Positions 17,647-37,976 of a stretch of 40,359 nucleotides of DNA are shown here, one piece after another. The notes below the pieces were generated by a model, which saw nothing but the letters and a program-made list of their open reading frames with translations, had not been told where the DNA came from and searched no databases. The stretch's first letter is position 1. The number at the start of each line of letters is the position of its first letter. Source of the stretch: Pirellulales bacterium (GTDB taxonomy: Bacteria; Planctomycetota; Planctomycetia; Pirellulales; UBA1268). Both the position numbers and the translations under genes were made by a program. The stretch lies in assembly GCA_044355515.1 (NCBI GenBank), contig JBIKXY010000003.1, positions 1-40,359 on the forward strand, in the 5' to 3' direction.

Positions 17647-20543
<2,897 letters not shown>

Positions 20544-20547
<4 letters not shown>

Positions 20548-20960: not shown

Positions 20961-21713
20961 TCACTCGAACACGTCGGCGTCCGGGGCCTCGGCCGCCGGC
21001 GGCGGGACGGGCTCTTCGACCCTTTCCGCGGGGAGTTGCTCCCGCTCCGCGGGCAGTTCCAGCGGTTCGGCGGCGGCAGCCGGCTCCGAGTCCAGAGCAG
21101 GCGGAGCCGGCATCTCCTCGGCCGGCGCGAGCGGCCGGGCGGGATCAGACGGCAGCTCCTCGCCCCCGAACGCCGGCAGCGGATCCCGCGAAATGCCCTC
21201 GGGCCGCCGCTGGCGGAGCACCTCCGATTGCCGCGAGTCGATCTGCGAATACCGCCGCTCGACCGCCTGCCGCCGCTGCTCGAGCCCGGCCACCCGGGCC
21301 CGCACGCGGTGCCGCTCGAGCATGAGCCGGTCGTGGCCCTGCACCCGCTCGAGCGCCCGCGGCACGCCCCAGTCGCCGACCGCCTCGGTCTCCTTCATGG
21401 CGCCGGTGGCGAAATCGGCCTCCGACTCGTCGAGCCGCCCGAGCTTGAGGGCCGCGAGACCCCGGAAGTACCAGGCCCGCGGATCGCGGGTGCCCGCCTC
21501 GATCGCCTGGGTCAGATCGTCGTAGGACCGCTGGGCATCGCCGCCGTAGTAGGCATGCACGCCCGCGCCGTAGGCTCGGGCCAGCGGCGTGACCTCCGTC
21601 AGCGCCGGCTCCGCCCGAACGCCCGCCAGCAGGCCGCCCGCAGCAGCAACCCACACAGCCAGACCGACCGGGCGGCCAACCGAGCGACACGACCCCGACG
21701 CCATCGCGGCCAT
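20961..21713 (-). CDS. Secreted TPR-like protein
   Basis: Signal-like N-terminus, helical repeats YGAGVHAYY...AWYFRGLAALKLGR...ADF, and an acidic Pro/Ala tail. Confidence 0.75.
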   Translation of the reverse strand: MAAMASGSCRSVGRPVGLAVWVAAAGGLLAGVRAEPALTEVTPLARAYGAGVHAYYGGDAQRSYDDLTQAIEAGTRDPRAWYFRGLAALKLGRLDESEADFATGAMKETEAVGDWGVPRALERVQGHDRLMLERHRVRARVAGLEQRRQAVERRYSQIDSRQSEVLRQRRPEGISRDPLPAFGGEELPSDPARPLAPAEEMPAPPALDSEPAAAAEPLELPAEREQLPAERVEEPVPPPAAEAPDADVFE

Positions 21714-21838
21714 TACACGAATCTCCACGGGCGGACCGGCCGACGGGTGGCCTGCTCCTCGAGACAGGATATCGACGGATGGTAGCCCGCCGCCCCGCCC
21801 GCCACGGGCGGCGGCGACACGACCGCTACGACCGGCCT

Positions 21839-22336
21839 TCAGTCGGGCCGCAGGGTTTGCCCGTCCCCGGCAGCCCCCCGGGCCGCGGCGTGGCGGCGAA
21901 AGGTCGGTTCATCGAGGAACACGGCCGCCCGGACGAGGCCGAGCATCACCGGCTCATCGGGCCAGCCGAAGCCCTCGAGCAGCCGGTCGAACTCGGCCGG
22001 CGGGCACGAGCCCTTGAGATCCACAAGCAGGACCCGGCCTTGTCGCTCGAACAGGTTGCCATCGACCTGCCAGGGCCGGTCGCCGGCCGGGCTCGTCCAG
22101 ACGAACGACCCGTCTGGCTCGACGAACATCCGTGGCAGCCGCGCGAGCCGCTCGAGCGCCTCGTCGAAGCTGATCGCGAGCGGTTGCGTAAGCGATTCTC
22201 GGGAGACCGCCAGGATCGGCCACGAGCCGCGGTCGTCGGCATGGTGGCCGGCGGCGGTCGCGGCGGCGGGCTGGCGGTGGAGGACGGCCTCGAAGGCGTA
22301 GAGTTCACCGGCCGGCGGCCTGCCCGTGGCTGTCAT
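21839..22336 (-). CDS. Hypothetical protein
   Basis: Globular-looking 165-aa protein (FVEPDGSFVW, WQVDGNLFE, VDLKGSCP, GWP). The ATG overlaps the cutA stop (ATGA). Confidence 0.75.
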   Translation of the reverse strand: MTATGRPPAGELYAFEAVLHRQPAAATAAGHHADDRGSWPILAVSRESLTQPLAISFDEALERLARLPRMFVEPDGSFVWTSPAGDRPWQVDGNLFERQGRVLLVDLKGSCPPAEFDRLLEGFGWPDEPVMLGLVRAAVFLDEPTFRRHAAARGAAGDGQTLRPD

Positions 22337-22680
22337 CCCGCCTCCACGCTCTCCCGCACCCAGGCGGCGTAGCCGGCGGTCGCCTCGACGGGCACGACCG
22401 TCACCTGCGGCGTCTGGTAGGGATGCCCGTCCAGGATGGCCTTCAGGCAGGCGTCGCGCAGCCCGAGCGTGGTCTTGCAGGTGCACCGCCACTCCTCCGC
22501 CGTCTCGATCGCCGACCGCCAGCGGTAGGTGCTTGTCACCGGGCCGTCGATCTGTACGCAGGCGACGAGCCGCACGGCCACGAGCCGCTCGGCGCAAGCG
22601 GCGGCTTCCGCCCGCGCGCTGAACGTGGTGCGGATCTCGACGAGCCCGGCCTCGAGCACGGCGTTGCTGGATGCTGGCAT
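22333..22680 (-). CDS. cutA: CutA divalent-cation tolerance / PII-like protein
   Basis: LVACVQI, STYRW, EEW..CKT, HPYQTPQV, YAAWV. GAGGAG SD upstream. Confidence 0.93.
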   Translation of the reverse strand: MPASSNAVLEAGLVEIRTTFSARAEAAACAERLVAVRLVACVQIDGPVTSTYRWRSAIETAEEWRCTCKTTLGLRDACLKAILDGHPYQTPQVTVVPVEATAGYAAWVRESVEAG

Positions 22681-22702: not shown

Positions 22703-23815
22703 TCATGCCGCATCGATGAACCCGCTGCCAGCGTGGCCGGCGCCGATCGCCACCACGGGCGGCGTCGCTGGCCGCTCGCCGAGCGACTCCACCCACTCCG
22801 CCCCGTCGCCCCTGCGGCAGCAGAGCGAGGGAGGATCGACTCCGGCCCGCTCGGCCACGACCGCCCCGCCGCCGGGGTGGCGGTCTGCGACGGCGCCCAG
22901 CCGCCGGATCGCCTCGGGAACGGCATCGTCGCCGGGAACCCGGCCGAGCCAGGCCGCCAGCACGGCCAAGGCGTCGAACTCGGTCTCGCAGGTCGGGAGT
23001 TCGCGGCTCGCGGCCTGATGCCAGGCGGCGACGGCCCGCCGCCACAACCACCAGACGCGGTCGCCGTCTCGGCCCGCTCCAGCCATGCCGCCAACGATCG
23101 CCGGCCAGCCCGCCGGCCGCGCCACCGACAGCCCGGCCAGCCGCGGTCGCACCTGCGGCCAGAGATCCGCGTCGGCCCGTACCGCCGTCGCGAAGCGGAC
23201 CACGAGGTCGGTCGCCAAGCTCTCGGCGAGCGTTGGCTGCCGACCGCTCGGCCCCATCACGGGAGCCTCACGATGGGCGAGCGGATCGAGATCGTGGCCA
23301 TGCCGCACCTGCTGCCGGCTGTCCGCCCACTGTTCTCCGGTGGCGATCCCGAATCGGGCGGCGAAGGGGGCATGATCGGGAAGCCAGACGTCACGATCGC
23401 CCGCCAGCAGCACGAGCCGGATCTGCGCCGCCTGCTCCGCCCGCTCCGACGGCCGACCTCGCGGCGTGGGGGCCGGCACCGGCATCCCCTGGCCCGCCCA
23501 GCGGGCCAGCGTGCGGAGCACCGGGCGGGCAGCGCGAAGCGATTTGAGCGCGACGCGGCCCCTGGCCGCTTCCCCCCGGGCACCGCCGTGCCAGGGACGA
23601 TCCCGGCCTGACCAGGTGTCGGAGAGGAGCCAGTCGAAGGTGTCGCCGGCGAACAGGAGCGCGACCTCCTCGACGGGTCGATAGCGGCCGTCCCGGGTCC
23701 AGCCGGCCCGCACGACCGCCCGGCGGATCGCATCCAGCCAGCGAATTGCCGCCGACGCCCGCGCATCCGCGAGCGAGCCGTCGCCGATCCCCCAGTTGGC
23801 CGTGATCGCGAGCAT
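22703..23815 (-). CDS. Calcineurin-like metallophosphoesterase-fold protein with degenerate metal ligands
   Basis: The order MLAITANWG / LFAGDTFD / LLAGDRD / VRHGHDLDP parallels SDxH / GDxxD / GNHD / HGH. Confidence 0.6.
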   Translation of the reverse strand: MLAITANWGIGDGSLADARASAAIRWLDAIRRAVVRAGWTRDGRYRPVEEVALLFAGDTFDWLLSDTWSGRDRPWHGGARGEAARGRVALKSLRAARPVLRTLARWAGQGMPVPAPTPRGRPSERAEQAAQIRLVLLAGDRDVWLPDHAPFAARFGIATGEQWADSRQQVRHGHDLDPLAHREAPVMGPSGRQPTLAESLATDLVVRFATAVRADADLWPQVRPRLAGLSVARPAGWPAIVGGMAGAGRDGDRVWWLWRRAVAAWHQAASRELPTCETEFDALAVLAAWLGRVPGDDAVPEAIRRLGAVADRHPGGGAVVAERAGVDPPSLCCRRGDGAEWVESLGERPATPPVVAIGAGHAGSGFIDAA

Positions 23816-23912
23816 GGTCGCCTCGCCCCCCGCTCGGTGTTTTCGGCGGCCGGGACGGCCCGGCTTGCGACCGGCTGGGGAAAACGCCGTGCAGGCTTTG
23901 GGCAAACGCCGG

Positions 23913-24818
23913 TCAGGCGGGTCCGGCCAGACTCGCCCGGGCGGCCCGGGTGATGGCCACCACGGCCGGGTGGGCCAGCCGCTTCTCCATGGAGATGGCG
24001 TAGACCCGCTCCCGGAGCCGTTCCTCCCGGCCCACCACCTCGACCCCGTACATCCGCCGCACCTCCTCCTCGACGGCCGTCGGGGCCAGAAACAGGCCTT
24101 CGCCGCGGCCCCCGAAGGCCTTCAAGAGCCCGCTGTCGGAAAACTCGCCGCGGATCTGCGGCCGGATGCCCAGCTCGTCGAACCACTGATCCATGGCCCG
24201 CCGCAGGGCGGCGTTGCCGGCGGGCACGAGCAGCGGGGCTCCCGCGAGCGAGCCGGGGAAACCTGGCCGATACTTCTCGGCCAAGGCGGCCGTGCCGAAG
24301 ACCGCGATCCCACAGTCGCCGAGCGGATGGTTGAACACCCGCAGTCCCAGCCGGGGATTGGCCGGATAGTCGCTGATCACGAGATCGAGGTCGTGGAGCG
24401 TGAGCTGGGCCAGCAGCCGGTCAGGATCCCCGTCGATGCACGAAACCTGCACGGCCTCGGGAAGATGGAGAGCCGGCTCGAGCAGCCGGTGCACGATCAG
24501 TTTGGGGAGCGTGTCGGCCACGCCAACGGTAAACTTGAGCACACCCCCCGTCACCCGGCCGGCCACGGCTCCCTCGAGTTCCCGACCGAGGGAAAAAATC
24601 TCGTCGGCGTAGCGGTACACGAGCCGGCCGGTCTCCGTGAGCGCGATCGACCGGCCCCGCCGCTCGAGGAGTTTGGCCTTGAGCGACCTCTCCAAGGCCT
24701 TGATCTGCCCGCTCACGGTGGGCTGGGCCAGGTGGAGCCGCTGACAGGCCCCGGCAATGCTGCCCTCCCGGGCAGCCGTCCAGAAATACAGCAAATGGTG
24801 GTAGTTGAGCCAGTTCAC
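23913..24818 (-). CDS. nhaR: LysR-family regulator, NhaR-like
   Basis: NWLNYHHLLYFW, QPTVSGQIKALE, YADEIFSLG, EFSDSGLLKAFG, HPAVVAI. Start GTG 24818 or ATG 24830. The symbol reflects the subfamily, not a proven regulon. Confidence 0.88.
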   Translation of the reverse strand: MNWLNYHHLLYFWTAAREGSIAGACQRLHLAQPTVSGQIKALERSLKAKLLERRGRSIALTETGRLVYRYADEIFSLGRELEGAVAGRVTGGVLKFTVGVADTLPKLIVHRLLEPALHLPEAVQVSCIDGDPDRLLAQLTLHDLDLVISDYPANPRLGLRVFNHPLGDCGIAVFGTAALAEKYRPGFPGSLAGAPLLVPAGNAALRRAMDQWFDELGIRPQIRGEFSDSGLLKAFGGRGEGLFLAPTAVEEEVRRMYGVEVVGREERLRERVYAISMEKRLAHPAVVAITRAARASLAGPA

Positions 24819-24827
24819 GATCCAGCC

Positions 24828-24844
24828 CATCGGTTTTTGCGATG
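24828..24844. promoter_or_regulatory. LysR-type binding site (T-N11-A dyad)
   Basis: CATCG-GTTTTTG-CGATG, with T24830-N11-A24842. Confidence 0.7.
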
Positions 24845-24845
24845 A

Positions 24846-24874
24846 ATTGTATCGAAACATTCTCGTTTGTCGAA
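24846..24874 (-). promoter_or_regulatory. Putative sigma70 promoter of the NhaR-like gene
   Basis: TTCGAC (24874-69), N17, TACAAT (24851-46). Confidence 0.6.
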
Positions 24875-24965
24875 GTCACGCCGGGATCCTTTAGATTCCG
24901 ATAATTCCTCGGATAGCGGTTGCGCGGACCTTGCCGCCTCCGCCACGCCCGCCCGGAACATCCGC

Positions 24966-26633
24966 ATGGTGACCGCGGTCGCCTACCCGCCGCACGACGA
25001 GGCTCCGGCCGCCGGGCACGGACCGCTGCACGCCCACGGCAAGAGCCCGGCCCAGCGGCTGCTCGATCTCGCCCGGTTGGAATGGGGCGACGTATTCACG
25101 CTCCTGGCCTTCGCGCTCGGTGTCGGCCTGTTGTCGCTCGTCGCCCCGGCCGCGATCGAGGCGCTCGTCAACACGGTGGCCTTCGGGATCCTGCTCTGGC
25201 CGGTGCTCGTGCTGTCGCTGGTGATGTTCGCGCTGTTGTTCGTGTCGGCGGTGCTGCGGGCGCTGCAGACCTACGTGGCCGAATGCCTGCAACGGCGCCT
25301 GTTCGTCCGCACGGCCCTCGGCTTCGCCGACCGACTGGCCCGCACCGGAATCGCTTCCTTCGACGGGGCCAACCGGGCCGACATCGTCAATCGCTTCTTC
25401 GAGGTCTCGTCGGGCCAGAAGTCGATCGCCACCCTGCTCGTCGAGGGGGTCGGGATCATCATGATGACCCTCGTGGGCCTGATCGTGCTGGCCTTCTACC
25501 ATCCCTACCTGCTGACCTTCGCGCTGGTGATGGCGGGAGCGGTCGTGTTCCTGCTGGTCGTGCTCGGGATCGGCGGCGTGCGGACGAGCATCGCCGAGAG
25601 CTACGCGAAGTTCGACGTGGCGGCCTGGCTCGAGGAGGTGGCCCGCTGCCCGCACACCTTCCGCAGCGGCGAGGGGGCGATGCTGGCGCTGGAGCGTGCC
25701 GATCAGCTCTCGGACCACTACATCGCGACCCGGAAGCGGCACTTCGCCGTGATCTGGCGGCAGACGCTGTTCGCCCTGCTGCTCGAAGCGGTGGGCTGCA
25801 CCGTGCTCCTGGGCCTCGGGGGCTGGCTCGTGATCAACCGCCAGCTCACGCTCGGCCAGCTCGTGGCCAGCGAGCTGATCGTGACGCTCGTGCTCACCGC
25901 GCTCTCGAAGATCGGCAAGTATGTCGAAATCTTCTACGATCTCCAGGCCACGCTCGACAAGCTGGGTGTGCTCGACCGGCTGCCGCCCGAGCCAACGGAT
26001 GGCGAGACGCTGCCCGCCGACGGCGGCCCGCTGAGCGTGGTGGTCGAGCTGCCCGGGCCCGGAGCGATGCGGCGGCTGGAGCTCGCGGCCGGCGAGCGGG
26101 TGGCGATCGTCGGCCCGACAGGCAAGACGCCGCTGCTCGAGACGCTGGCGCTCCTGCGACTGCCGCGCCCCGGCCTCCTGGAGCTTGACGGGATCGACGC
26201 CCGCCAGCTCGACCGGCCGGCCACACGGCAGCAGATCGCGTTCGTCGGCCGGGCGGAGGTGTTCGCCGGCACGCTGGCCGAAAACGTGCGGCTCGGCCGC
26301 GGGAGCGTCACTGCCGCCGACATCCGCCGGGCGCTCGAAGCGGTCGGGCTTGCCGATCGCATCGCCCGCCTGCCCGACTCGCTCCAGACCGCGATCCCGC
26401 CGGATGGTCGGCCGCTCTCCACCAGCGAGCTCGCCCGGCTGGCGATCGCCCGGGCGATCGTGAGCCGGCCCCGGCTCTTGCTGCTCGATGGGATCCTCGA
26501 CGGTCTCGACCTCGACTCCTGCCCCGGGCTGCTCGACACGCTCTTCGATCCGGCTGCCCCCTGGACGCTCGTGCTGGTCAGCGTGCGGGACGAGATCCGC
26601 AGCCGCTGCGGGAGGGTGGTGGCATGGTCGTGA
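24966..26633 (+). CDS. T1SS-type ABC exporter (TMD+NBD) with degenerate ATPase motifs
   Basis: Six-TM exporter domain (GGWLVINRQLTLGQLVASE) followed by an NBD fold (ENVRLG, ARAIVSRPRLLLLD). No C39 domain. Start trimmed to ATG 24966. Confidence 0.85.
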   Translation: MVTAVAYPPHDEAPAAGHGPLHAHGKSPAQRLLDLARLEWGDVFTLLAFALGVGLLSLVAPAAIEALVNTVAFGILLWPVLVLSLVMFALLFVSAVLRALQTYVAECLQRRLFVRTALGFADRLARTGIASFDGANRADIVNRFFEVSSGQKSIATLLVEGVGIIMMTLVGLIVLAFYHPYLLTFALVMAGAVVFLLVVLGIGGVRTSIAESYAKFDVAAWLEEVARCPHTFRSGEGAMLALERADQLSDHYIATRKRHFAVIWRQTLFALLLEAVGCTVLLGLGGWLVINRQLTLGQLVASELIVTLVLTALSKIGKYVEIFYDLQATLDKLGVLDRLPPEPTDGETLPADGGPLSVVVELPGPGAMRRLELAAGERVAIVGPTGKTPLLETLALLRLPRPGLLELDGIDARQLDRPATRQQIAFVGRAEVFAGTLAENVRLGRGSVTAADIRRALEAVGLADRIARLPDSLQTAIPPDGRPLSTSELARLAIARAIVSRPRLLLLDGILDGLDLDSCPGLLDTLFDPAAPWTLVLVSVRDEIRSRCGRVVAWS

Positions 26634-28018
26634 CCCGCCAGCCGCCGCTGCCGGAGCGGGACGCGGTGAATCGCGTCTCGCTGGCACACTCGCTCACGCC
26701 CCGGACCGTCCGCTGGCTGGCCCGGCTCGTGTTCGCCGTCTTCCTCGCGATCCCCTTCGCCCTGGCGCTCGTGCCCTGGCAGCAGACGGTGATGTGCCGG
26801 GGCACGATCGTGGCCTACGCCCCGGTCGAGCGGATGCAGGTGCTCACGGCCCGCGTCTCCGGGCAGGTGCGGACCTGGCACGTCGTCGAGGGCAGCCGCG
26901 TCAAGGCGCATGACCCGCTGGTGGACATCGAAGACAACGACCCGGAGCTCGCGGCGCGGCTCGAGGCGCAGCGGGCCTTTCTCGCCGACCGGCTGGTGGC
27001 GGCCCGGCAGGAGATGGCCGAACTGGCCGCGGCGGCCAAGGCGCAGGAGGCGGCCCGCGACGCGGCGGTGAGGGCGGCGGAGGCCAACCGCGAGGCGGCC
27101 GTCCGGTCGATCCAGGTCGCCGAGCAGTCGAAGGCCAACGCCGCCTTCAACCAGGACTTCGAGCAGCTTCGCTACGAGATGTTCGACGACCTGTTCTCCA
27201 ACCCGAAGTTCGGCGGCCTGGAGAGCAAGCTCTCCCGCGACGAGGCCCGGATGCGGGCCGATCGGGCCGTCACCGACACCGACAAGGCCGATGCCGAGAT
27301 CGCCAAGGCCCAAGCCGCCCTGCTCACGCAGGAAGCCCTGCTCGTCCAGGCCGACGCCACCGGCCTTTCGGCCATCGCCGTCGCCAAGAGCAACCTCCGC
27401 AAGGCCGAGCAGAACCTGTTCTCGATCGAGCGGGAGATCCAGCAGATCGACAACCAGATCGAGCGGTTCAAGGCCCGCCGTGTGGTCGCACCCTGCGACG
27501 GGGTGGTGTTTCGCGTCGCGGCCAACGTGAACCAGGGCGGCCTGTACGTCAAGGAGGGCGACGAGCTGTGCACGATCGTGCCCGACACGGCCGACCGCGT
27601 GGCGGAGTTGTTTCTCGACGGCGTCGATGCGCCGATCGTGCTGGCCTACGCCGACCGCGAACAAGAGATGCCCCACGTGCGGCTGCAGTTCGAGGGCTGG
27701 CCGGCGGTGCAGTTCTCGGGCTGGCCCGAGATGGCGATCGGCACCTTCGGCGGCAAGGTCCGGCAGGTGGACGCGGCCAGCGGGCTGGCGGGCCAGTGCC
27801 GGATCCTGGTCGAGCCCGAGCTGGTGATGCCGGGCGACCAGTGGCCCGACCCGGAGTTTCTCCGGCAGGGCAACCAGGTGATCGGCTGGGTGTTCCTGAA
27901 CCGCGTCTCGCTCGGCTTCGAGATCTGGCGGCGGCTCAACGGCTTCCCGCCGGTGCTCGCGCCGGCCCCGAAGACGAAGGACAGCGCGCCCAAGCCTCCC
28001 AAGATCAAGGTGGGGTGA
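26624..28018 (+). CDS. HlyD-family membrane fusion protein
   Basis: N-terminal TM, lipoyl half-motifs (VVEGSRVKAHDPL; VVAPCDGVV), long coiled coil, VRLQFEGWPAVQFSGWP. Overlaps the ABC stop. Confidence 0.92.
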   Translation: MVVTRQPPLPERDAVNRVSLAHSLTPRTVRWLARLVFAVFLAIPFALALVPWQQTVMCRGTIVAYAPVERMQVLTARVSGQVRTWHVVEGSRVKAHDPLVDIEDNDPELAARLEAQRAFLADRLVAARQEMAELAAAAKAQEAARDAAVRAAEANREAAVRSIQVAEQSKANAAFNQDFEQLRYEMFDDLFSNPKFGGLESKLSRDEARMRADRAVTDTDKADAEIAKAQAALLTQEALLVQADATGLSAIAVAKSNLRKAEQNLFSIEREIQQIDNQIERFKARRVVAPCDGVVFRVAANVNQGGLYVKEGDELCTIVPDTADRVAELFLDGVDAPIVLAYADREQEMPHVRLQFEGWPAVQFSGWPEMAIGTFGGKVRQVDAASGLAGQCRILVEPELVMPGDQWPDPEFLRQGNQVIGWVFLNRVSLGFEIWRRLNGFPPVLAPAPKTKDSAPKPPKIKVG

Positions 28019-28025
28019 GCCGCTC

Positions 28026-29663
28026 ATGACTCCGCTCCGCCTGCCTTCCGCATTCGCGGCGCTGCTCGCCGCCGTGGCGGCCGTGGCCGCCGAACCGCTG
28101 CCGCCGCCTGCCGGGCTTCCCCAGGCCGGCCCGGTGGCGGCCGACGGACCGATCCCGCCGTCGGCGCCCGGCGCCCCCGCCCTCGTGCCCCCGGCCGCCG
28201 CGCGACTACCCGGCAACCTGGCGATCGACGACCGGCCCGAGCCGCTGACGCTCGCCGAAGTGCTCGAGAGTGTCCGCCGCCACTACCCGCTGCTGCAGGC
28301 GATCGAGCGGGAACGGGGCGTCGCCGCCGGCCGGATGACCGCCGCGATGGGCGCCTTCGATACCAATGTCAACATGGCGGGCAACGCGCTCGCGCCGGGC
28401 ACCTACGAAAACTACCGCTCCGACTTCGGGCTCTCCCAACTGCTCCAGAGCGGCGGCGTGCAGGTGTTCGGCGGCTATCGCACGGGCTTCGGCACGTTCC
28501 CCACCTACAACCTCGGCCAGAAGACGGCCGACGTCGGCGAGTTTCGCGGCGGGCTGACGCTGCCCTTCGCCCGCGAACGCGATATCGATTCCGCCCGGGC
28601 CGGCCGTGACAAGGCCCGGCTCGATCAGGCGATCGCCGAGCCGACGATCGTGCGGAGCCGGCTCGACTACACGCGTGCCGCGGCGCTGGCCTACTGGACC
28701 TGGATGGGCAGCGGCGAGCGGGAGGGTGCGGCCAAGCGGCTCGAGGCCCTCGCCGTCCGCCGCGACGGCGAGATCGCCGCCAAGGTGGACCGGGGCGTGA
28801 TGGCCAACATCGAGCGGGTGGACAACCAGAAAAACATCGCCCTGCGGCGGGGCTTGCTCGTGCAGGCCGACCGCGAGGTGCAAATGTCCACGATCGACCT
28901 CTCGCTCTTCCTCCGGGACTCCGGCGGCCAGCCCCTCCTGCCCGCCCGGCGACGGATGCAGCCGCTCCCCGAACCGGTGGAGCCCGGGGTGAGCGTCTAC
29001 GAGGCGGCGCTGTCACGGGCGATCGCGGCTCGGCCGGAGTTTCAGCGGCTGTCGCTCGAGCGGGAGAAGCTGTTCGTCGAGCGGCGGTTGGCGGCCAACG
29101 ACACGCTCCCGAACATCGACGGGCAGGTCTACGGCAACCAGGACGCCGGCTTCGGCAAGAGCGCCCTCTCCGGCATCGACGGGCTCGACCGGCAGGTGCT
29201 GCAGGCGGCGGTCGTGTTTCAGATGCCCGCCCAGCGGCGGAACGCCCGCGGCCGCCTCCAGGCGGTGGATTCGCAGCTCGTGCAGCTCGACCGGCGGCTG
29301 GAGTTCACTTTCGACTCGGTGCGGGCCGAGGTGCAAGACGCCTACTCGAAGCTCGAGCGGGCCTACGAGTTTCACAAGCAGGCCGTCCAGCAGGAGGAGT
29401 TGGCGGCGCTCGTGGCCGAGGCCGAGCGGGAACAGTTCCGGCTCGGCCGCAGCGACATCCTCCGGGTCACGCTCCGCGAGCAGGCCAAGTTCGACGCGGA
29501 TCTCCTGGAAATCGCGGCCCGGCAGGAATACTGGCGGGCCGACGCCAATCTCCGGGCGGCCGACACCTCGCTCGACGTGCTTGGCACCGGCTTGGAGCAG
29601 GCACGACTGCTGGCCCCTGTGCCGGAAGTGGTGCCCCTGCCCGCGGTCGCTCCGGGGCCATGA
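28026..29663 (+). CDS. TolC-family outer-membrane factor
   Basis: Signal peptide, Pro-rich linker, LTLAEVLESVRRHYPLL, two OEP-like helical repeats, EREQFRLGRSDIL. Confidence 0.9.
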   Translation: MTPLRLPSAFAALLAAVAAVAAEPLPPPAGLPQAGPVAADGPIPPSAPGAPALVPPAAARLPGNLAIDDRPEPLTLAEVLESVRRHYPLLQAIERERGVAAGRMTAAMGAFDTNVNMAGNALAPGTYENYRSDFGLSQLLQSGGVQVFGGYRTGFGTFPTYNLGQKTADVGEFRGGLTLPFARERDIDSARAGRDKARLDQAIAEPTIVRSRLDYTRAAALAYWTWMGSGEREGAAKRLEALAVRRDGEIAAKVDRGVMANIERVDNQKNIALRRGLLVQADREVQMSTIDLSLFLRDSGGQPLLPARRRMQPLPEPVEPGVSVYEAALSRAIAARPEFQRLSLEREKLFVERRLAANDTLPNIDGQVYGNQDAGFGKSALSGIDGLDRQVLQAAVVFQMPAQRRNARGRLQAVDSQLVQLDRRLEFTFDSVRAEVQDAYSKLERAYEFHKQAVQQEELAALVAEAEREQFRLGRSDILRVTLREQAKFDADLLEIAARQEYWRADANLRAADTSLDVLGTGLEQARLLAPVPEVVPLPAVAPGP

Positions 29664-29682: not shown

Positions 29683-31023
29683 TCAGGGCTCGAGGAACGT
29701 GGTCTGGCAGATCCGCTCCAGCGAGCCTTCGAGTTCAGTGCCGGTGACGAGCGCCGACGCCTTGCCGGTGCCGGAACCCGGGAGCCGATACGAGACCTCG
29801 AAGGCCTGCCGGCCGCCGGGAGGAATCGAGGCCACGGAGCCGAAGTTCACCCGCGAGCTTTCGACCCGGACCCGCGACGGGATCGGGTCGCCCACCATCC
29901 GGGCGCCCTCGGGCAGGAGCACCACCACGTCGAGCGGTCCGGTCGGAAGCGTGCCCCCGTTGCTGATGGTGCACACCAGCGTCGTGGCGTCACCGGAGCG
30001 AACGGGATCGTCCAGATCGGCGAGCGTCAGCCGCAAGCCCGCCTCGGACGGCGACCGGACCCGCGGCCGGCTCACGGTGGAGGCGATTCCCACGCAGGAG
30101 TCGTCGGCGAGCAGGGAGCCGCCGGCGAGCCCCGAGAGCACCGCCCGCACGCAGGCCCGCGTGGGGGGCGAGTCACGAAACATGCCCGGCGTCGCTTCGG
30201 CCCGGAGGTTGATCTGCCGTTCCTGGGCACCTTTCGGCTCGATCGCCGGAATCGCCCACGAGACCTTGGCACCGGCGAGCTGATAGCCGTCGGAGGCCTC
30301 GAGCGGGCTGAGCTGCTGATCCCAGGAAAACTCGAGCGTGGCCGGCTGCGACGCGGCGGTTCCGTTGTTCTTGATGATCGCGACGTATTTCACGACGTCG
30401 CCGGCCGACACCTGTGCCGGCCCGGTCAGGTCGAGTTCGACCGCCGGAACACCGGACGCGAGCGGCACCGTCGCGAGCGGGGCCGCGGCGAGCGGCGGCG
30501 ACAGCGGGCTGGGCGGCGGCGCAACGAGCGGCGGCGGCGCGGTGACAGCGGGCGGACCGAACCGCGGCTCCGGCACGTTCACCGTGGACGGCGGCGCGGC
30601 AGGGGGCGGCACGAACGCCGGATTCGGCGCCACCTCGACACAGTGTTGAGCGCCGCCCAAGTTCCGCTGCGACTGGTCGAGGATCGCGACCCGATGGCAC
30701 TGCCTGCCCGGCTCGTCGAGCAGGAAATCGAGCGTCAGCCGCCGGGCAGTCCCCGGCGCGAGGTCGATCGTTCCCTTCTGCTCGATCGGGCTCGCCGAGG
30801 CTTCATGATGGAAGCCGGCGTCGAAGTAGTCGATCACCCGGAGTCTCTGCAGCGGCTGGCCGGAACGGTTGACCAACTCCACCTCGAACGACACCCGATC
30901 CCCCACGCGGCCCACGAGCGGCCCGGTGATCGAAACCAGCACCGGATCCTCAGCCTGGGCGGCGGAGGCAGCCAGCCAGGCCACCAGGAAAACGACAAGC
31001 GGACGCAACGACGGAGACGACAT
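29683..31023 (-). CDS. Secreted DUF11/Ig-like repeat protein (OmcB-like)
   Basis: Signal peptide AQA-ED. Three repeats of the type GP...VGD.V.F/Y.I.(V)N.G with Cys pairs, and a Pro-rich linker. Confidence 0.75.
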   Translation of the reverse strand: MSSPSLRPLVVFLVAWLAASAAQAEDPVLVSITGPLVGRVGDRVSFEVELVNRSGQPLQRLRVIDYFDAGFHHEASASPIEQKGTIDLAPGTARRLTLDFLLDEPGRQCHRVAILDQSQRNLGGAQHCVEVAPNPAFVPPPAAPPSTVNVPEPRFGPPAVTAPPPLVAPPPSPLSPPLAAAPLATVPLASGVPAVELDLTGPAQVSAGDVVKYVAIIKNNGTAASQPATLEFSWDQQLSPLEASDGYQLAGAKVSWAIPAIEPKGAQERQINLRAEATPGMFRDSPPTRACVRAVLSGLAGGSLLADDSCVGIASTVSRPRVRSPSEAGLRLTLADLDDPVRSGDATTLVCTISNGGTLPTGPLDVVVLLPEGARMVGDPIPSRVRVESSRVNFGSVASIPPGGRQAFEVSYRLPGSGTGKASALVTGTELEGSLERICQTTFLEP

Positions 31024-31076
31024 GCAAATGGCTCCCAAGGCTTGCCAGACGGCCTGGAGAGGCTACCACGGAGCCG

Positions 31077-31774: not shown

Positions 31775-32650
31775 TCAGCCAAACCGGCCGGTGACGTAGG
31801 CCTCCGTCTCGCGGAGGACGGGCTTGGTGAAAATCTCGGGCGTGGCCCCGTATTCGATCAGCCGGCCCAGGTACATGAAGGCCGTATAGTCGCTCGTGCG
31901 GCTGGCCTGCTGCATGTTGTGGGTCACCATCAGGACGGAGTAGCGGCCGCGGAGCTCCTGGATCAGGTCCTCGATCTTGCCGGTGGCGATCGGGTCGAGG
32001 GCGGAGCAGGGCTCGTCGAGCAGGAGCACCTCGGGCTCGGCCGCGATCGCCCGGGCGATGCAGAGCCGCTGCTGCTGGCCGCCGGAGAGCCCCAGCGCGC
32101 TATCCTGAAGCCGGTCCTTGACCTCGTCCCAGAGCGCCGCCCCGCGGAGGCTGAGCTCGCAGACCTCGTCGAGCACGCCCCGGTTGTTCTCGCCGTCGAT
32201 CCGCAGGGCGTAGACCACGTTCTCGTAGATGCTCATCGGAAAGGGATTGGGCTTCTGGAACACCATCCCCATCCGCTTGCGGAGCTCGATCACGTCCATC
32301 CGCGGGTCGTAGATCGAGTCGCCGTTGAGCCGCATGTCGCCGGTGATCCGGACGTTCCGCACCAGGTCGTTGAGCCGGTTGACGCTCCGCAGGAGGGTGG
32401 ACTTGCCGCAGCCGCTGGGGCCCACGAGCGCCGTCACCTTGGCGTTGGGGATCGGCATCGTGATCCGGTGGAGGGCCTGCTTCGAGCCATACCAGAGGTT
32501 GAAGCGATCGACCTCGAGCACCGGCCGCTCGGCCAGCACGCCGGCATGCACCTCCGACTCCACCTCGAAGCCCCGGGCGACCGCCAGCAGCCGGTCGGCC
32601 GGCGGGGCCTCGCCGGCCGGCTGCGGTTCGGGCTTGATGGCCGCCTGCAT
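31775..32650 (-). CDS. pstB: Phosphate ABC transporter ATPase
   Basis: [50 protein letters not shown]. Confidence 0.97.
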
Positions 32651-32693
32651 GGGGAGGTCTCCGGGGAAGGCCGCGGGATTGTACACCGCGGAT

Positions 32694-34370
32694 TCAGAAT
32701 GTTTGCGCCGCGTATCGCCGCCGCAGCCGGGACCGCAGCCAAATGGCCGCGATATTCAAGACCGCGATGATCGCCACCAGCAGGAAGGTGATCGTGAACA
32801 CCATCGGCTGGGCGGCCTGGCTGTCGGCGCTCTGGAAGCCGACGTCGTAGATCAGGTAGGCCAGATGCATGAACTCCCGCTCCGGGTGGACGAAGGGGAA
32901 GCTGCCGTCCACCGGCAGATCGAGGGCCAGCTTCTTGACCCCCACCAGCATCAGGGGCGCCACCTCGCCGGCCCCCCGGGCCATCGCCAGGATCAGGCCC
33001 GTCATGATGCCCGGCAGCGCTCGGGGCAGCACGATCCGCCGGATCGTCTGCCACTTGCCCGCGCCGCAGGCGTAGGAGCCCTCCCGCATCGAGTTGGGCA
33101 CGGCCGAGAGCGCCTCCTCCGTGGCCACGATCACCACCGGCAGCGTGAGCAGCGCGAGCGTGAGCGAGGCCCAGAGCAGTCCCCCCGTGCCGAACACGGG
33201 CTGGCCATCGGCCACGGTGCTGGCCCGGAAGAACAGCTCGTCGATCCCGGCCCCCAGGCCGTAGCAGAAGAAGCCCAGTCCGAATGCGCCGTAGACGATG
33301 CTCGGCACGCCCGCGAGGTTGTTGATCGCGATCCGCACGGCCGCGACGATCGGCCCGCTCGTGGCATATTCGCGGAGGTAGAGCGCCGCGAGCACGCCGA
33401 AGGGCGCCACCAGGAGCGCCATGATCAGCGTCATGGTGACGGTGCCCCAGATCGCTGGAAAGACGCCGCCGGCGCTATTGGCCTCGCGGGGGTCGTCGGC
33501 CAAAAACTCGCCCCAGCGGGAGGCGTACACGCCCAGCCGCCCGGCCAGCCCCAGCCGGTTGGGCTGCCAGGCCCGCACGATCCCGTCGAGCGGCACGCTC
33601 GTGATTCCGCCCGAGGCGGTCTCGAACTCCACCGCCCAGCCGGCGTTCTGCTCCCGGAGCGCGGCCGTCTCGCCGTCGAGCCGCCGGGTCACCTGGGCCA
33701 CCGCCTCCTGCTCCCGTGCCTCGGCCTCCACTGCCCGCCGCTCGGCCTCGCTCTCCGCGGCCGAGTCGAGCCTGGCCTGCACCACGGCCAGCCGGGCGGC
33801 CCGCAGCCGCCGCTGAAGCTTGCCCCGCTCGACCCGGTCGATCCGCAGCGCCTGCCGCCACCGCCGGCGGGCCGCCGGATGCTCTTCGGCATACGCTTTC
33901 CAGACGTCGGCCGACCCCTCGGCCACGGCCTGGTCACCGTGCACGAGCCGCCGCGGGATCCCATGCAGCCGTCCTCCCTCGACCCGCTCGACCACCGTGG
34001 CCCATTCGGGGCGGCTCGTGGCGGCGATGGCCGCTTCGTCCACCCATTCGAAGCTGCTCCCCGACTCGGCCTGGGCCGCCGTGCGCAGGAGCAGCCGGGC
34101 CGGCTGCCCTTCGCTGCCGGCTCCCGGCGGCACCGCCGCTTCCCGCTCGGTCACCTCGCCGAGCAGTCGCCGACCGTCGGTGAGTTCGACCCGTTCCAGC
34201 GGCACCGGCCAAAACGTGGCCGCCCCGCGGACGGCGATCAGGGCCAAGAGGCCGACGATCATCACGATTGCCGTGGCCAGGGACCCGGCGGTCAGCCAGA
34301 CCCAGGGCTCGCCGTGGGCCGCGAGCCCGGCGTGGGCGCTTCGCAGCCGGCGGGGCCGATCAGAGCTCAT
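32694..34370 (-). CDS. pstA: Phosphate ABC transporter permease PstA (long form)
   Basis: [40 protein letters not shown], with a large periplasmic helical insert. Confidence 0.95.
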
Positions 34371-36954
34371 GGGCCCGCCTCCGGAACCGCTGCCGCACGA
34401 TCTCGGCGGCCGTGTTGACGACGAATGTGATCGCGAACAGCGCGAGCGCCGCCAGGAACAGCACCCGATAGTGGGTGCTGCCCCGCGCCGCCTCCGGCAG
34501 TTCGGTGGCGATCGCGGCGGACAGCGTCTGGAAGCCGTTGAACAGGTTCCAGCTCACAAGCGGGGTGTTGCCCGCCGCCATCAGCACGATCATCGTCTCG
34601 CCCACGGCCCGCCCCAGGCCGATCATCACCGCGGAAAACAGCCCGCTGGCCGCCGCGGGCACGATCACGCGGATCGCCGTCTGCCAGGGGGTGGCCCCCG
34701 CCCCGAGCGACGCGCTGCGGAGGTGCTCCGGCACGCTCGTGAGGGCGTCGTCGGCGATCGTGAACACCAGCGGGATGATCGCGAAGCTCATCCCCACCGC
34801 CACCACCAGCGCATTCCGCTGCACGTAGGTGCCGAACAGCCCCCCCCGCGTATCGAGGCGAATGGCGTCGAAGAAGAAGGCGGCACCGACCGCGAGCACC
34901 AGCACGCCGACCGCCCCGGCGGCGAACACGGCGAGCGAGACGGCCGCGGCCCGGCCGCGGCTCCAGGCCGCGCCCCGCCGTCGGAGCAGCGGACTGACCA
35001 CGTTGCCGGTGAACCAGGCCATCGCCACCGCCGCCAGCGGCAGCATCGCCACCACCCAGCCGCCGAAGCCGCTGCCATCGCGGCCGTCGAGCCAGCTGCG
35101 GACATCCCCCCGGAACAAGAGCCGCTCCGCCGCCGGGGCGAGCATCCCCGCGGCGATCAGGCCGGCGGGCATCGCCACCAGGGCCACGACCAGGAACCGC
35201 CAGCCGGCCAGGCTCGTGCGGAGGCCCGAGGGCAGCAGCAGCCAGAGGTGGGCCCCGAGCAGGATCGCCAGCGGCACCGTCACGAAGCCCGTCAGCACCG
35301 CCATCAGCCACTGCTCGATCAGCGGCGCGAAGATCAGGCCGGCCACGAAGCCGAGCACCACGCTCGGCAGGCTCGCCATCATCTCGATCGTGGGCTTGAT
35401 CCGGGCCTTCCATTTCGGCTGCATGAACTGGCTGGCGTAGATCGCCGCCAGGATCGCGATCGGCGTGGCGAACAGCATCGAATAGAGCGTGGCCTTGACC
35501 GTGCCGAACACGAGCGGCAACAGGCCGAACTTGGACTCGAAAGCCTCGTGGCCCGTCGTCTCCCAGGCATGCACGGGGCCGGGATAGCCCTCGTACCAAA
35601 CCGGCCCGAGGAGCGTCTGGAGCGAGACCTCGGGATAGCCCGCGTCGATCGACCAGGCGGCCAGCCGGCGGCCGCCGGCGGCGAGCAGCCGGTTCTCCCG
35701 GGCCGGGATTGCCAGGGCCGTGGCGGCGGCCTTGGCCGGCGCCGCCGGGCCGACCTCGGTCACCTCGCGGCTGGCCGTGGAATGAAGCAGCCGCACCCGG
35801 CCGGCCGCGTCGGCCGTGGCGAACAGCCGCGACCGGGGCGAGGCGGCGATCGCGGTGACGGCCGGAGCCCCAGGGCCCGCGGGAAACTCGCGGGCCGTCA
35901 CGACGGCCAGGCCGTCGTCCGTCGGCTTGGCGCCGGCGGCCGGCGTGGCCCGGGCCGCGAACATGATCCGCACGCCGCCGTCGTCGCCCCCGACGGCCAG
36001 GCCCGTGCCGCCGAACAGCCGCTCGACCGCCGCGACCGGGCCGCCGGCCGCAAACGACTCCATCAGCTTCGGCGCGGTCACGTCGCGAATCAGATACCGC
36101 CGCCCGCTGCCGTCGGCCGCGAGCAGAAACAGCTGATCGCCCAGTTCCGAGACCCGGACGAACCGCGGCCGGAAGCCCGGGACGGCGGCAATCGTGGCCC
36201 CCGCGGCGACGGTCGTCCGCTTGCCGGTCCGCATGTTTCGCTTCGAGGTGGCCGACTCGACCCGGACGCGGCCCTCCTCGTCGAGCGCCGCCACCAGCGG
36301 CCCGCCGGCCAGCGGCGTGATGTCGATGTCGATGATCCGCGCGGGCAGCGACTCGCCGCCGGGCGTGGCGAGGTCGGCGACGAGCCCGACCCGGGCGAGT
36401 TGCCCCCCCTGCCCGCGGACGACGACGCCGCCGTCGGGCAACGAGCCCGCTTCACCCTCGGCCGGAGCCGTGGTGCCGGCGGGCAGGTCGGCGGCGGCGA
36501 GGAATGACGACTCGAGCCCGAGGCGGCCCGTGCGAAACGTGCCGTCGGCGAATCCGGCAGCCGCGAGCAGGCTACCGGGCACGACCCGCACGGCCGAGCA
36601 GCCGGCCAGGCCGATCTCCGCGGCCGGCTTGTGGAACAACGTCTTGCCGTTGGCCAGCCCGAGGCCGCGGAGGCCGTCGGCGGAGAGCACCCAGCCGAGG
36701 TCGCCCGACTCGTCGCCGCCGACGGCCAGCGGCGGGGCGTCGGCCAGCGCCGCCGAGCCGGCGGCCGCGGTCCGGGCCGGCCGAAACAGCGGGGCCGCCA
36801 CCACCAGGAGAAACACTCCCACGCCCAGCACCGCCAGGATCGTGCCGATGCCGCCCAGCGTGATCAGGCCGCGGGCCAGCGCGTCGCTGAACCGCACCCA
36901 CGGATGGCTCGTGCGGCGACGGCTGCGGCCGGTGAAGGTGCCGTGGGCATGCAT
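34360..36954 (-). CDS. pstC: Phosphate ABC transporter permease PstC (long form with beta-propeller-like domain)
   Basis: VWYEGY, KPTIEMMASLPSVVLG, SLGAGATPWQT, GRAVGETMIVLM; 864 aa. Confidence 0.93.
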   Translation of the reverse strand: MHAHGTFTGRSRRRTSHPWVRFSDALARGLITLGGIGTILAVLGVGVFLLVVAAPLFRPARTAAAGSAALADAPPLAVGGDESGDLGWVLSADGLRGLGLANGKTLFHKPAAEIGLAGCSAVRVVPGSLLAAAGFADGTFRTGRLGLESSFLAAADLPAGTTAPAEGEAGSLPDGGVVVRGQGGQLARVGLVADLATPGGESLPARIIDIDITPLAGGPLVAALDEEGRVRVESATSKRNMRTGKRTTVAAGATIAAVPGFRPRFVRVSELGDQLFLLAADGSGRRYLIRDVTAPKLMESFAAGGPVAAVERLFGGTGLAVGGDDGGVRIMFAARATPAAGAKPTDDGLAVVTAREFPAGPGAPAVTAIAASPRSRLFATADAAGRVRLLHSTASREVTEVGPAAPAKAAATALAIPARENRLLAAGGRRLAAWSIDAGYPEVSLQTLLGPVWYEGYPGPVHAWETTGHEAFESKFGLLPLVFGTVKATLYSMLFATPIAILAAIYASQFMQPKWKARIKPTIEMMASLPSVVLGFVAGLIFAPLIEQWLMAVLTGFVTVPLAILLGAHLWLLLPSGLRTSLAGWRFLVVALVAMPAGLIAAGMLAPAAERLLFRGDVRSWLDGRDGSGFGGWVVAMLPLAAVAMAWFTGNVVSPLLRRRGAAWSRGRAAAVSLAVFAAGAVGVLVLAVGAAFFFDAIRLDTRGGLFGTYVQRNALVVAVGMSFAIIPLVFTIADDALTSVPEHLRSASLGAGATPWQTAIRVIVPAAASGLFSAVMIGLGRAVGETMIVLMAAGNTPLVSWNLFNGFQTLSAAIATELPEAARGSTHYRVLFLAALALFAITFVVNTAAEIVRQRFRRRAHEL

Positions 36955-36971
36955 GCCGCGGGGTTCGTTTC

Positions 36972-37976
36972 CTACGGCGTTTCGATTCCGACCTCGGCCA
37001 GGGCCTCGGCGGCCACGGCCGGGGTGACCGGCAGGTAGCCGTCCTTGGTCACGTCGGCCTGACCCTCGCGGCTGAGCACGTAGCGGAGAAACTCCCGCCG
37101 CAGCGGGTCGAGCTCACTGCCCGGGCGATGATTGACGCTCAGATACAGAAACCGCGACAGCGGATAGTCGCCCGAATAGGCCGCCTCCGGCACGGGCGCC
37201 ACGGCCTCGGCGTCGGGCTCGGCGGCGAGGGGCAAGGCCCGGACGTTGGCGGTCATGTAGCCGATCCCGCTGTAGCCGATGCCGAACTTGTCGCTCGCCA
37301 CGGCCGTGACCACCGAGGAACTGCCCGGCTGCTCCTTGACCGTGGGCTTGAAGTCGCCCTTGAAGAGGGCGAACTCCTTGAAATAGCCGTAGGTGCCGCT
37401 GGTGGCGTTGCGGCCGTAGAGGCTGATCGGCCGGTCCTTCCACTCCCCCTCCAGGCCGAGGTCGCCCCAGGTGCGGATGTCGGCCTTGGCTCCACCGGTG
37501 CGATTCTTGGAGAAGATCGCATCGACCTGCTGGAGCGAGAGCGATTTCAGGGGATTGTCCTTGTGGACGAAGACCACGAGCATGTCGAGGGCCGTGGGCA
37601 CGACGGTGGGGGCGTAGCCGTGCTTGGCCTTGAAGGCGTCGATCTCGGAGGGCTTCCAGTCGCGGCTCATCGGGCCGAACGAGCAGGTGCCCTCGGCCAA
37701 GGCCGGCGGCGCCGAGGCCGAGCCCTTGCCTTCGACTCCCTCGCGGACGCTGGGGTAGAACTTCTTGAAGCCCTCGGCCCAGAGGGCGACGAGGTTGTTC
37801 ATCGTGTCGGAGCCGACGCACTTGAGCGACCCGGCCACCTCGCCGGAAGCCTTGGTGTAGGCGGGCAGTTCGGCCACGGCGGTGTCGGCGGCGGGCGCCA
37901 AGGGCGCGAGCCCCATGATCAGGCTTGCGGCGGCGAGCAGGGAGCGGACCATGGGCCGGAAGCGGTCACGATTCAC
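36972..37976 (-). CDS. pstS: Phosphate-binding protein
   Basis: Signal peptide, VGSDTM, GKGSASAP, MSR, GRNATSGTY, YPLSRFLY. AGGAG SD before the GTG start. Confidence 0.96.
   Translation of the reverse strand: MNRDRFRPMVRSLLAAASLIMGLAPLAPAADTAVAELPAYTKASGEVAGSLKCVGSDTMNNLVALWAEGFKKFYPSVREGVEGKGSASAPPALAEGTCSFGPMSRDWKPSEIDAFKAKHGYAPTVVPTALDMLVVFVHKDNPLKSLSLQQVDAIFSKNRTGGAKADIRTWGDLGLEGEWKDRPISLYGRNATSGTYGYFKEFALFKGDFKPTVKEQPGSSSVVTAVASDKFGIGYSGIGYMTANVRALPLAAEPDAEAVAPVPEAAYSGDYPLSRFLYLSVNHRPGSELDPLRREFLRYVLSREGQADVTKDGYLPVTPAVAAEALAEVGIETP

Follow-up and report, generated by a model that had tools for sequence, protein, structure and literature searches.

Exporters of the ABC superfamily are defined by ATP-driven transport, and MacAB-TolC is an ABC-type tripartite small-molecule pump with local regulators in which MacB has an FtsX-type membrane fold and an active ATPase. 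Operation of an ABC membrane domain on an ion gradient or as a channel has, to our knowledge, so far been approached only via engineered truncations of LmrA, where a carboxylate in the sixth transmembrane helix (TM6) is said to be critical, and transport by MsbA is reportedly proton-coupled. LmrA and its membrane domain LmrA-MD, a secondary-active transporter that lacks the nucleotide-binding domain (NBD), are described as carrying out proton-coupled transport, including an apparent H+-Na+-Cl- symport (PMC2704374), and exporters with one degenerate site such as TM287/288, TmrAB, CFTR and ABCC1 lack the catalytic Glu and carry altered H-loop and signature residues in a conserved, selected NBD (PMC7756269). 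Here we analyse a 40,359-bp stretch of contig JBIKXY010000003.1 from a Pirellulales bacterium (the whole stretch is hereafter the window), in which genes for an ABC half-transporter, a HlyD-family adaptor and a TolC-like outer-membrane factor form an operon divergent from a LysR-type regulator gene. We favour the reading, to which we give a probability of roughly 45%, that this operon would encode a conserved planctomycete tripartite exporter with a pseudo-ATPase ABC subunit that works without ATP hydrolysis.

The source contig comes from a lake-water planctomycete metagenome-assembled genome (72% G+C; genome assembly of 3.37 Mb, 86% complete). The features of the locus are:

23913-24830 (open reading frame reaches 24860), minus strand: LysR-type regulator of the NhaR family, 305 amino acids (HTH_1, LysR_substrate, NF008284)
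24840-24873, intergenic: operator-like element, CGATGAATTGTATCG (24840-24854) overlapping ATCGAAACATTCTCGTTTGTCGA (24851-24873), an interrupted dyad recognized by intergenic conservation
24966-26633 (open reading frame from 24867), plus strand: ABC half-transporter, 555 amino acids (membrane domain resembling type IV exporters, NBD degenerate)
26112-26129, plus strand: shortened Walker A motif GPTGKT, residues 383-388 (GPSGSGKT in relatives)
26415-26429, plus strand: degenerate ABC signature, LSTSE instead of LSGGQ
26475-26492, plus strand: Walker B motif LLLLDG, with Gly for the catalytic Glu (profile alignment to P-glycoprotein)
26574-26588, plus strand: H-loop region LVSVR, with Val for His
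26624-28018, plus strand: HlyD-family periplasmic adaptor, 464 amino acids (HlyD_3)
28026-29663, plus strand: TolC-like outer-membrane factor, 545 amino acids (OEP)

The nucleotide-binding domain provides the first line of evidence. The window protein has the ABC superfamily fold (ABC_tran, 53.5 bits against a Pfam cut-off of 25), and a profile alignment to P-glycoprotein sets the positions of its motifs. Walker A is two residues short of GxxGxGK[ST] with the Lys-Thr pair kept, the Q-loop Gln position is occupied by Arg, the signature reads LSTSE, Walker B ends in Gly where the catalytic Glu is expected and the H-loop His position holds Val; catalytic Glu, H-loop His, Q-loop Gln and LSGGQ are therefore all gone from a protein that also has a short P-loop, and the degeneracy described in an earlier note on this DNA, made from the sequence alone, is real. 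The same pattern extends to the 120 nearest database proteins, which are 65-100% identical to the window ABC protein. Every one of them has Gly after the Walker B Asp (120/120) and none has the H-loop His (0/120), which is replaced by Ala in 85, Val in 27, Thr in four, Ser in two and Cys in two; their signatures follow the pattern LSxN[E/D], and LSGGQ is not one of the listed variants. Of the 120, 119 keep the Walker A Lys, and the two-residue P-loop deletion is present in about 56, the remaining 64 or so having a full-length P-loop. Other ABC proteins of the same genome have intact, canonical motifs and share no more than 27-40% identity with the window protein, so that the degeneracy is specific to the latter, and a homology search for an intact paralog, which the earlier note had proposed, found no close one in the assembled 86% of the genome, the next best ABC protein being 27% identical. 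These observations support the view that the ATPase of the window protein is, judged from its motifs, dead and that this is a conserved trait of the family.

The second line of evidence is that selection acts most strongly on the other half of the protein. Over 11 pairs of the window protein and its relatives, a set that leaves out the pair of the window and locus L027, dN/dS is 0.08-0.17 for the membrane domain and 0.18-0.37 for the NBD; the ABC protein is under purifying selection in both domains and is not decaying. In an alignment that spans the wider family, with its distant relatives of about 45% identity, 39 of the 44 invariant columns fall in the transmembrane domain (residues 1-334) and five in the NBD, a distribution which is the reverse of that of ordinary ABC exporters. 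Six long helices are predicted in the window protein; its ABC_membrane match (22.7 bits) lies under the 28-bit cut-off, and PF00664 is on record for many homologs. An AlphaFold2 model built from an 11-sequence alignment is poor, its pLDDT averaging 55 overall, with values under 50 in the membrane domain and of 70-90 in the NBD, and the following positions accordingly come from hydropathy and this low-confidence model. Of the strongest motifs, PAAIEALVNTVAFG is placed at the end of TM1 and in the first periplasmic loop, YHPYLLTF (YHPY at 178-181) in the TM3-TM4 loop and NRQ (291-293) in the TM5-TM6 loop. The TM6 carboxylate E303 is nearly invariant.

The window protein begins 25 residues ahead of the elbow helix and has no C39 or C39-like N-terminal domain. 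Its short N-terminus contains a His-rich (HGH-type) stretch at residues 10-25 (24993-25040), just before the first membrane helix, and in 75 of the 120 close and 76 of 150 distant homologs the 30 residues leading up to the elbow helix contain three or more His, against an overall His content of 2%. This hints at metal binding, and two further observations touch on the idea of metal efflux: a CutA1 gene lies at 22333-22680 of the window, and a gene for a zinc-type CDF transporter abuts the operon of the wider-family locus L100.

The distant relatives give a view of how this state may have arisen. Most of them are 700-790 amino acids long and carry an additional N-terminal domain which has no Pfam match and which language-model features liken to peptidase C39 (score 0.93, to be taken as a lead only). 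The catalytic Glu is present in 41 of 150 representatives of this wider family (P0125-P0274), the H-loop His in 28 and all four hallmark residues in 14, while the remaining members have lost from one to all four hallmark residues in many combinations. Such patchy decay of the NBD suggests a repeated, independent loss of ATPase function. Because 14 members keep all hallmark residues, the ancestor was probably an ATP-driven exporter of the HlyB/PCAT kind with a C39-like domain. Judged by these motifs, decay of the NBD is widespread in the wider family and complete in the subfamily of the window, which has also lost the N-terminal domain. Homologs that join canonical NBDs to a consistently linked cargo had been named in the earlier note as evidence that would speak against its reading; canonical NBDs do occur, in these 14 of 150 distant relatives, and none comes with a consistently linked cargo.

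The organization of the operon is likewise conserved. ABC and HlyD have 10 bp in common (26624-26633) and a gap of 7 bp (28019-28025) separates HlyD from TolC, and this tight coupling, together with the divergent NhaR-type LysR gene, was correctly described in the earlier note according to reading-frame coordinates and Pfam and NCBIfam matches. The true start of the ABC gene is probably the ATG at 24966, because database homologs are 555 amino acids long and the stop of the gene found upstream in relatives overlaps that ATG, and the true start of the LysR gene is probably the ATG at 24830, because the 10-codon extension contains a stop in locus L065 (read by eye); with these revised starts the divergent intergenic region becomes 135 bp (24831-24965). 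We compared the locus with the best 80 of 250 stretches encoding ABC relatives in a scan of species-representative genomes (the close loci), which come mainly from Planctomycetota, chiefly of freshwater, with a few other labels that are possibly mislabels, and with 16 distant loci drawn from different planctomycete families. HlyD lies 3' of the ABC gene in 76 of the 80 close loci and TolC follows HlyD in 63, and in all 17 loci where it is missed the contig ends about 400 bp or less past HlyD. Contigs from other studies' lake metagenomes bridge two of the gene junctions without a mismatch to the window, LysR-ABC in runs X2 and X4 and ABC-HlyD in X4, so that the gene arrangement is not an assembly artefact. 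Among the listed holders of the stretch there is no record with RNA as its source; run X20, which had been presumed to be RNA but is probably DNA, holds only pieces that are 90-99% alike (five at 95-99% and five at 90-95%), from relatives.

The two partner proteins are those expected of an envelope-spanning assembly. The adaptor (HlyD_3, 36.9 bits against 22.2) is anchored in the membrane by its N-terminal part and contains a lipoyl domain and a coiled coil, and its C-terminal domain carries the motifs FEGWPAVQFSGWP and EIWRRLNGFPP. The TolC-like protein (OEP, 48.6 bits against 22) combines a signal peptide with a linker rich in Pro and Ala, and a single OEP repeat can be detected in it. The two signatures that the earlier note had picked out in the adaptor are genuine, FEGWPA[VI]QFSGWP recurring in 63 of the 80 close loci and ExWRxxNGFPP in 71, contig-truncated loci being counted. 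Against the NCBIfam models of type I secretion systems (T1SS), the adaptor scores 44.9 bits with TIGR01843 (cut-off 208.65) and the ABC protein 110.7 with TIGR01846 (725.55), 83.3 with TIGR01842 (510.15) and 112.1 with TIGR03375 (693.1).

No conserved cargo-like gene of the RTX, bacteriocin or adhesin kind was found across the 80 close and 16 distant loci, and the missing cargo that the earlier note had remarked on in the window thus applies to the relatives as well. The convergent DUF11 protein encoded at 29683-31038 was considered as a type I cargo and rejected, having a Sec signal peptide and accompanying the operon in one of the 80 loci. There is one ABC gene per operon. A second ABC subunit, said in the earlier note to be absent from the window, is in fact present in the form of the canonical PstB ATPase (31775-32686) of a pstSCAB operon, which is unrelated to the operon studied here. 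That pstSCAB operon (31775-37976, minus strand) encodes unusually long permeases of 558 and 864 amino acids, of which only the C-terminal parts match BPD_transp_1. On the other side of the locus, 17647-20547 (plus strand) and 20961-21728 (minus strand) encode a 966-residue secretin-domain protein, a short open reading frame downstream of it and a TPR protein, which accompany the operon in its nearest relatives, L020, L022, L027 and L065.

The regulator combines HTH_1 and LysR_substrate domains and reaches 233.8 bits with the NhaR model NF008284 (cut-off 219); it is the single gene of its genome to match at this level, and among 14 control genomes E. coli alone reaches the cut-off. No nhaA gene (PF06965) was detected in the window, as the earlier note had stated, or in the 86%-complete genome. 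Directly 3' of the regulator gene, at 22703-23905 (minus strand), lies an Arg/Ala-rich open reading frame of 400 amino acids with no Pfam or NCBIfam match, which is found beside LysR in four of the 80 loci. The linkage between regulator and operon that the earlier note had emphasized holds in the clade of the window but not throughout: for the 65 loci with at least 1.5 kb of upstream DNA, an NhaR-like regulator is divergent upstream in 25, comprising 19 of the 25 loci with an ABC identity of at least 67% and six of the 40 below it, and elsewhere its place is taken by MarR (6/65) or by no regulator, or by TetR in the distant locus L109. The local regulators (LysR, MarR, TetR) are thus varied and, by analogy, of a kind seen at small-molecule efflux pumps. 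In L097, a distant relative, genes for a globin, a PAS histidine kinase and a LuxR-type response regulator (L097:11488-13803) precede the operon and could provide a gas- or redox-sensing input.

The intergenic region of the window carries a conserved element next to the start of the regulator gene. Among 30 intergenic sequences from the LysR side, 13 contain its 23-bp part and nine the 15-bp dyad, and the element is kept as DNA in L065 despite the broken overlapping reading frame; the dyad at 24840-24873 is compatible with a putative LysR-type operator. A small HPF/RaiA-family gene (PF02482) of about 120 codons lies between LysR and ABC in 15 of the 80 close loci (L065:7282-7650, L020:7308-7676 and 13 other loci), its stop overlapping the ABC start in the sequence ATGGTGA; four of the nine members scored exceed the PF02482 gathering score. 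In the window this gene has been cleanly deleted (about 360 bp, at 24831-24965), and the rest of the 86%-complete genome yielded no copy of it. In L043 and L109 a LysR-HPF pair stands apart from the ABC operon, so that the primary divergent partner of the regulator is the HPF-like gene.

A physiological context is offered by a minority of the loci. In eight of the 80 close loci the operon has DabBA or SulP genes no more than about 5 kb away, and four architectures can be distinguished overall when distant relatives are included. In L039, L044, L063, L072 and L089, with a fragment in L043, dabB-dabA (PF00361, PF10070) is divergent from a small marR gene directly before the ABC gene; L011 has a SulP-dabB-dabA cluster about 3 kb upstream of the regulator, and L012 a SulP/carbonic-anhydrase fusion downstream of TolC. 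Within the wider family, marR is divergent from a continuous dabB-dabA-ABC-HlyD-TolC series in L100 (genome G344), and in G223 DabA is encoded directly upstream, with some 700 bp between its end and the ABC match. The same MarR is found directly upstream of the ABC gene in L099 and L108, a position held by TetR in L109. The suggestion in the earlier note that such operons lie near DUF2309 (DabA), SulP or carbonic anhydrase genes is therefore partly borne out, as a real association seen in a minority of loci (eight of the 80 close ones, plus two distant genomes). The window genome itself encodes two such clusters away from the operon, DabA-DabB-DabB'-SulP followed by a SulP/beta-carbonic-anhydrase fusion on contig C221 (L093) and DabA-DabB divergent from MarR on contig C14 (L094); the organism is presumably heterotrophic. 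In a tally of 401 genomes of the phylum, of which 35 have the ABC family (G000 counted) and 366 do not, DabA is present in 24 of the 35 and 38 of the 366, a comparison confounded by kinship since two families supply most of the positives; adjacency occurs in two of the 35. DabAB is presented in a preprint as a cation-gradient-coupled CO2 hydration system which is present in heterotrophs too (10.1101/476713). This coupling makes an accessory role in ion or pH balance plausible and leaves the need for a TolC duct unexplained.

On the reading we favour, the inner-membrane ABC-fold protein, the HlyD adaptor and the TolC-like duct would together form a tripartite envelope exporter in which the ABC protein is a homodimeric pseudo-ATPase with two dead sites. 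The membrane domain would be the selected functional core and the NBD a non-catalytic structural or regulatory module, which in the clade of the window probably lacks normal nucleotide binding because its P-loop is two residues short. The exported substrate would not be a protein but an ion or small solute, moved by an ion-motive force or through a gated conduit; the closest experimental precedent is the NBD-less membrane domain of LmrA. Local small-molecule regulators would switch the system on, here the NhaR-family LysR protein acting on the conserved dyad by its own start and in other genomes the MarR protein that accompanies dabBA, and its physiological place might be in ion, pH and inorganic-carbon homeostasis. 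A more specific version, in which this would be the first natural ABC exporter family to dispense with ATP hydrolysis and would act as an ion-coupled or gated-duct accessory of planctomycete inorganic-carbon and ion homeostasis, co-regulated with DabBA and SulP-carbonic-anhydrase uptake via NhaR-like and MarR proteins, is doubtful and we hold it quite unlikely to be right in full. Several points weigh against the proposal. The Walker A Lys-Thr pair is still there and the P-loop is of full length in about half of the close family, with which nucleotide binding or a slow, non-canonical ATPase may be compatible; 14 of the 150 wider-family members keep the four hallmark residues, and the mechanism may differ between clades. 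The 40-kb window holds no inorganic-carbon genes, adjacency to such genes is a minority pattern and the co-occurrence with DabA is confounded by shared ancestry. Ions have no obvious need for a TolC duct, and with pLDDT below 50 in the membrane domain the placement of the conserved polar residues follows from hydropathy alone.

The retained Lys (119/120) is also the starting point for an unlikely alternative, an ordinary nucleotide-driven efflux pump that binds ATP and either hydrolyses it slowly in a non-canonical way or switches on binding only. The purifying selection on the NBD (dN/dS 0.18-0.37) and the full P-loop in about 64 of 120 homologs fit such a pump, and degenerate sites of known exporters still hold ATP tightly (PMC7756269). 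Yet Glu, His, Gln (mostly replaced by Arg) and LSGGQ have been lost together, in a homodimer both sites would be hit, and the clade of the window carries the two-residue P-loop deletion in addition; the cases reviewed in PMC7756269 pair a degenerate with a canonical site, and the wording 'two degenerate' is absent from its text. We consider it distinctly unlikely that the operon secretes an unlinked protein or peptide by the type I route, perhaps with the power supplied by a canonical ABC protein as heteromeric partner or in trans by a different ATPase, even though a profile search gives T1SS and PCAT proteins (5l22, 4ry2 and ComA; E 3e-34 to 1e-29) as the best solved half-transporter matches, the wider family has the C39-like lead and T1SS cargo genes may be unlinked. 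The subfamily is without that domain and the 80 + 16 loci are without a conserved cargo-like gene, each operon has its one ABC gene and the assembled genome no close paralog, the T1SS models are missed by a wide margin and the neighbouring DUF11 protein is a Sec substrate by its signal peptide.

If nothing were transported at all, the complex might be an envelope-spanning scaffold or sensor, a tether or signalling complex built on an ABC fold; the catalytically dead NBD would suit this, as would the location of the top motifs in three predicted periplasmic loops (E65/N69, YHPY and NRQ), which fits a docking surface, but TolC duct and adaptor are always kept, E303 in TM6 is nearly invariant and the regulators are of the efflux type, and we regard this explanation as improbable. 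The idea of a type I secretion operon in decay, of which this would be a relic, can be given hardly any credence: the window has indeed lost the ATPase motifs, the C39-like domain and the upstream HPF-like gene, but the reading frames are intact in 80 loci, the identical sequence recurs in lake metagenomes of several studies, and dN/dS values well below 1 effectively refute decay. Glycan export is a weak candidate function. In our own gene calls a GT4 glycosyltransferase is encoded immediately upstream in 14 loci, and genes for FucT, Ysc84, a member of the DAHP_synth_1 family and CTP synthase are found repeatedly on the downstream side, but the gaps are loose and the pattern of neighbours tracks clade synteny.

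The reading of a tripartite exporter with a pseudo-ATPase differs from each of the described systems in a particular respect. We found no paper describing an ABC/HlyD/TolC system with a dead ATPase in open-access full text or bioRxiv, and the HlyD, peptidase M50 and SecA_DEAD module of Planctomycetes (PMC4452313) is a different module with no ABC gene. The window regulator passes the same NhaR equivalog model as E. coli NhaR but, unlike it, is not beside nhaA, the divergent partner in relatives being an HPF/RaiA-like gene and then the ABC operon. With the T1SS and PCAT systems (HlyB-HlyD-TolC, the PrtD-like protein of Aquifex in 5l22, PCAT1 in 4ry2, and ComA) the locus shares the three-gene plan, the anchored HlyD-type adaptor, the TolC-family duct and the six-helix exporter domain, whereas the window subfamily has no C39 or C39-like domain, no linked cargo and no catalytic NBD motifs and concentrates its conservation in the membrane domain. 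The recurrent DabBA and SulP neighbours, together with the sensor-type regulators, name CO2, pH and Na+ as the conditions under which a phenotype might be sought. The exporters TM287/288, TmrAB, CFTR and ABCC1 keep a second, canonical site, in contrast to the two dead sites of a homodimer of the window type; should this be true, a selected family with two dead sites and a full HlyD-TolC conduit would amount to a natural test of ion-gradient or channel function. LmrA-MD and MsbA are engineered truncations or dual-energy transporters, whereas the window family, as known from sequence, would represent a natural and family-wide loss of motifs within a tripartite Gram-negative assembly.

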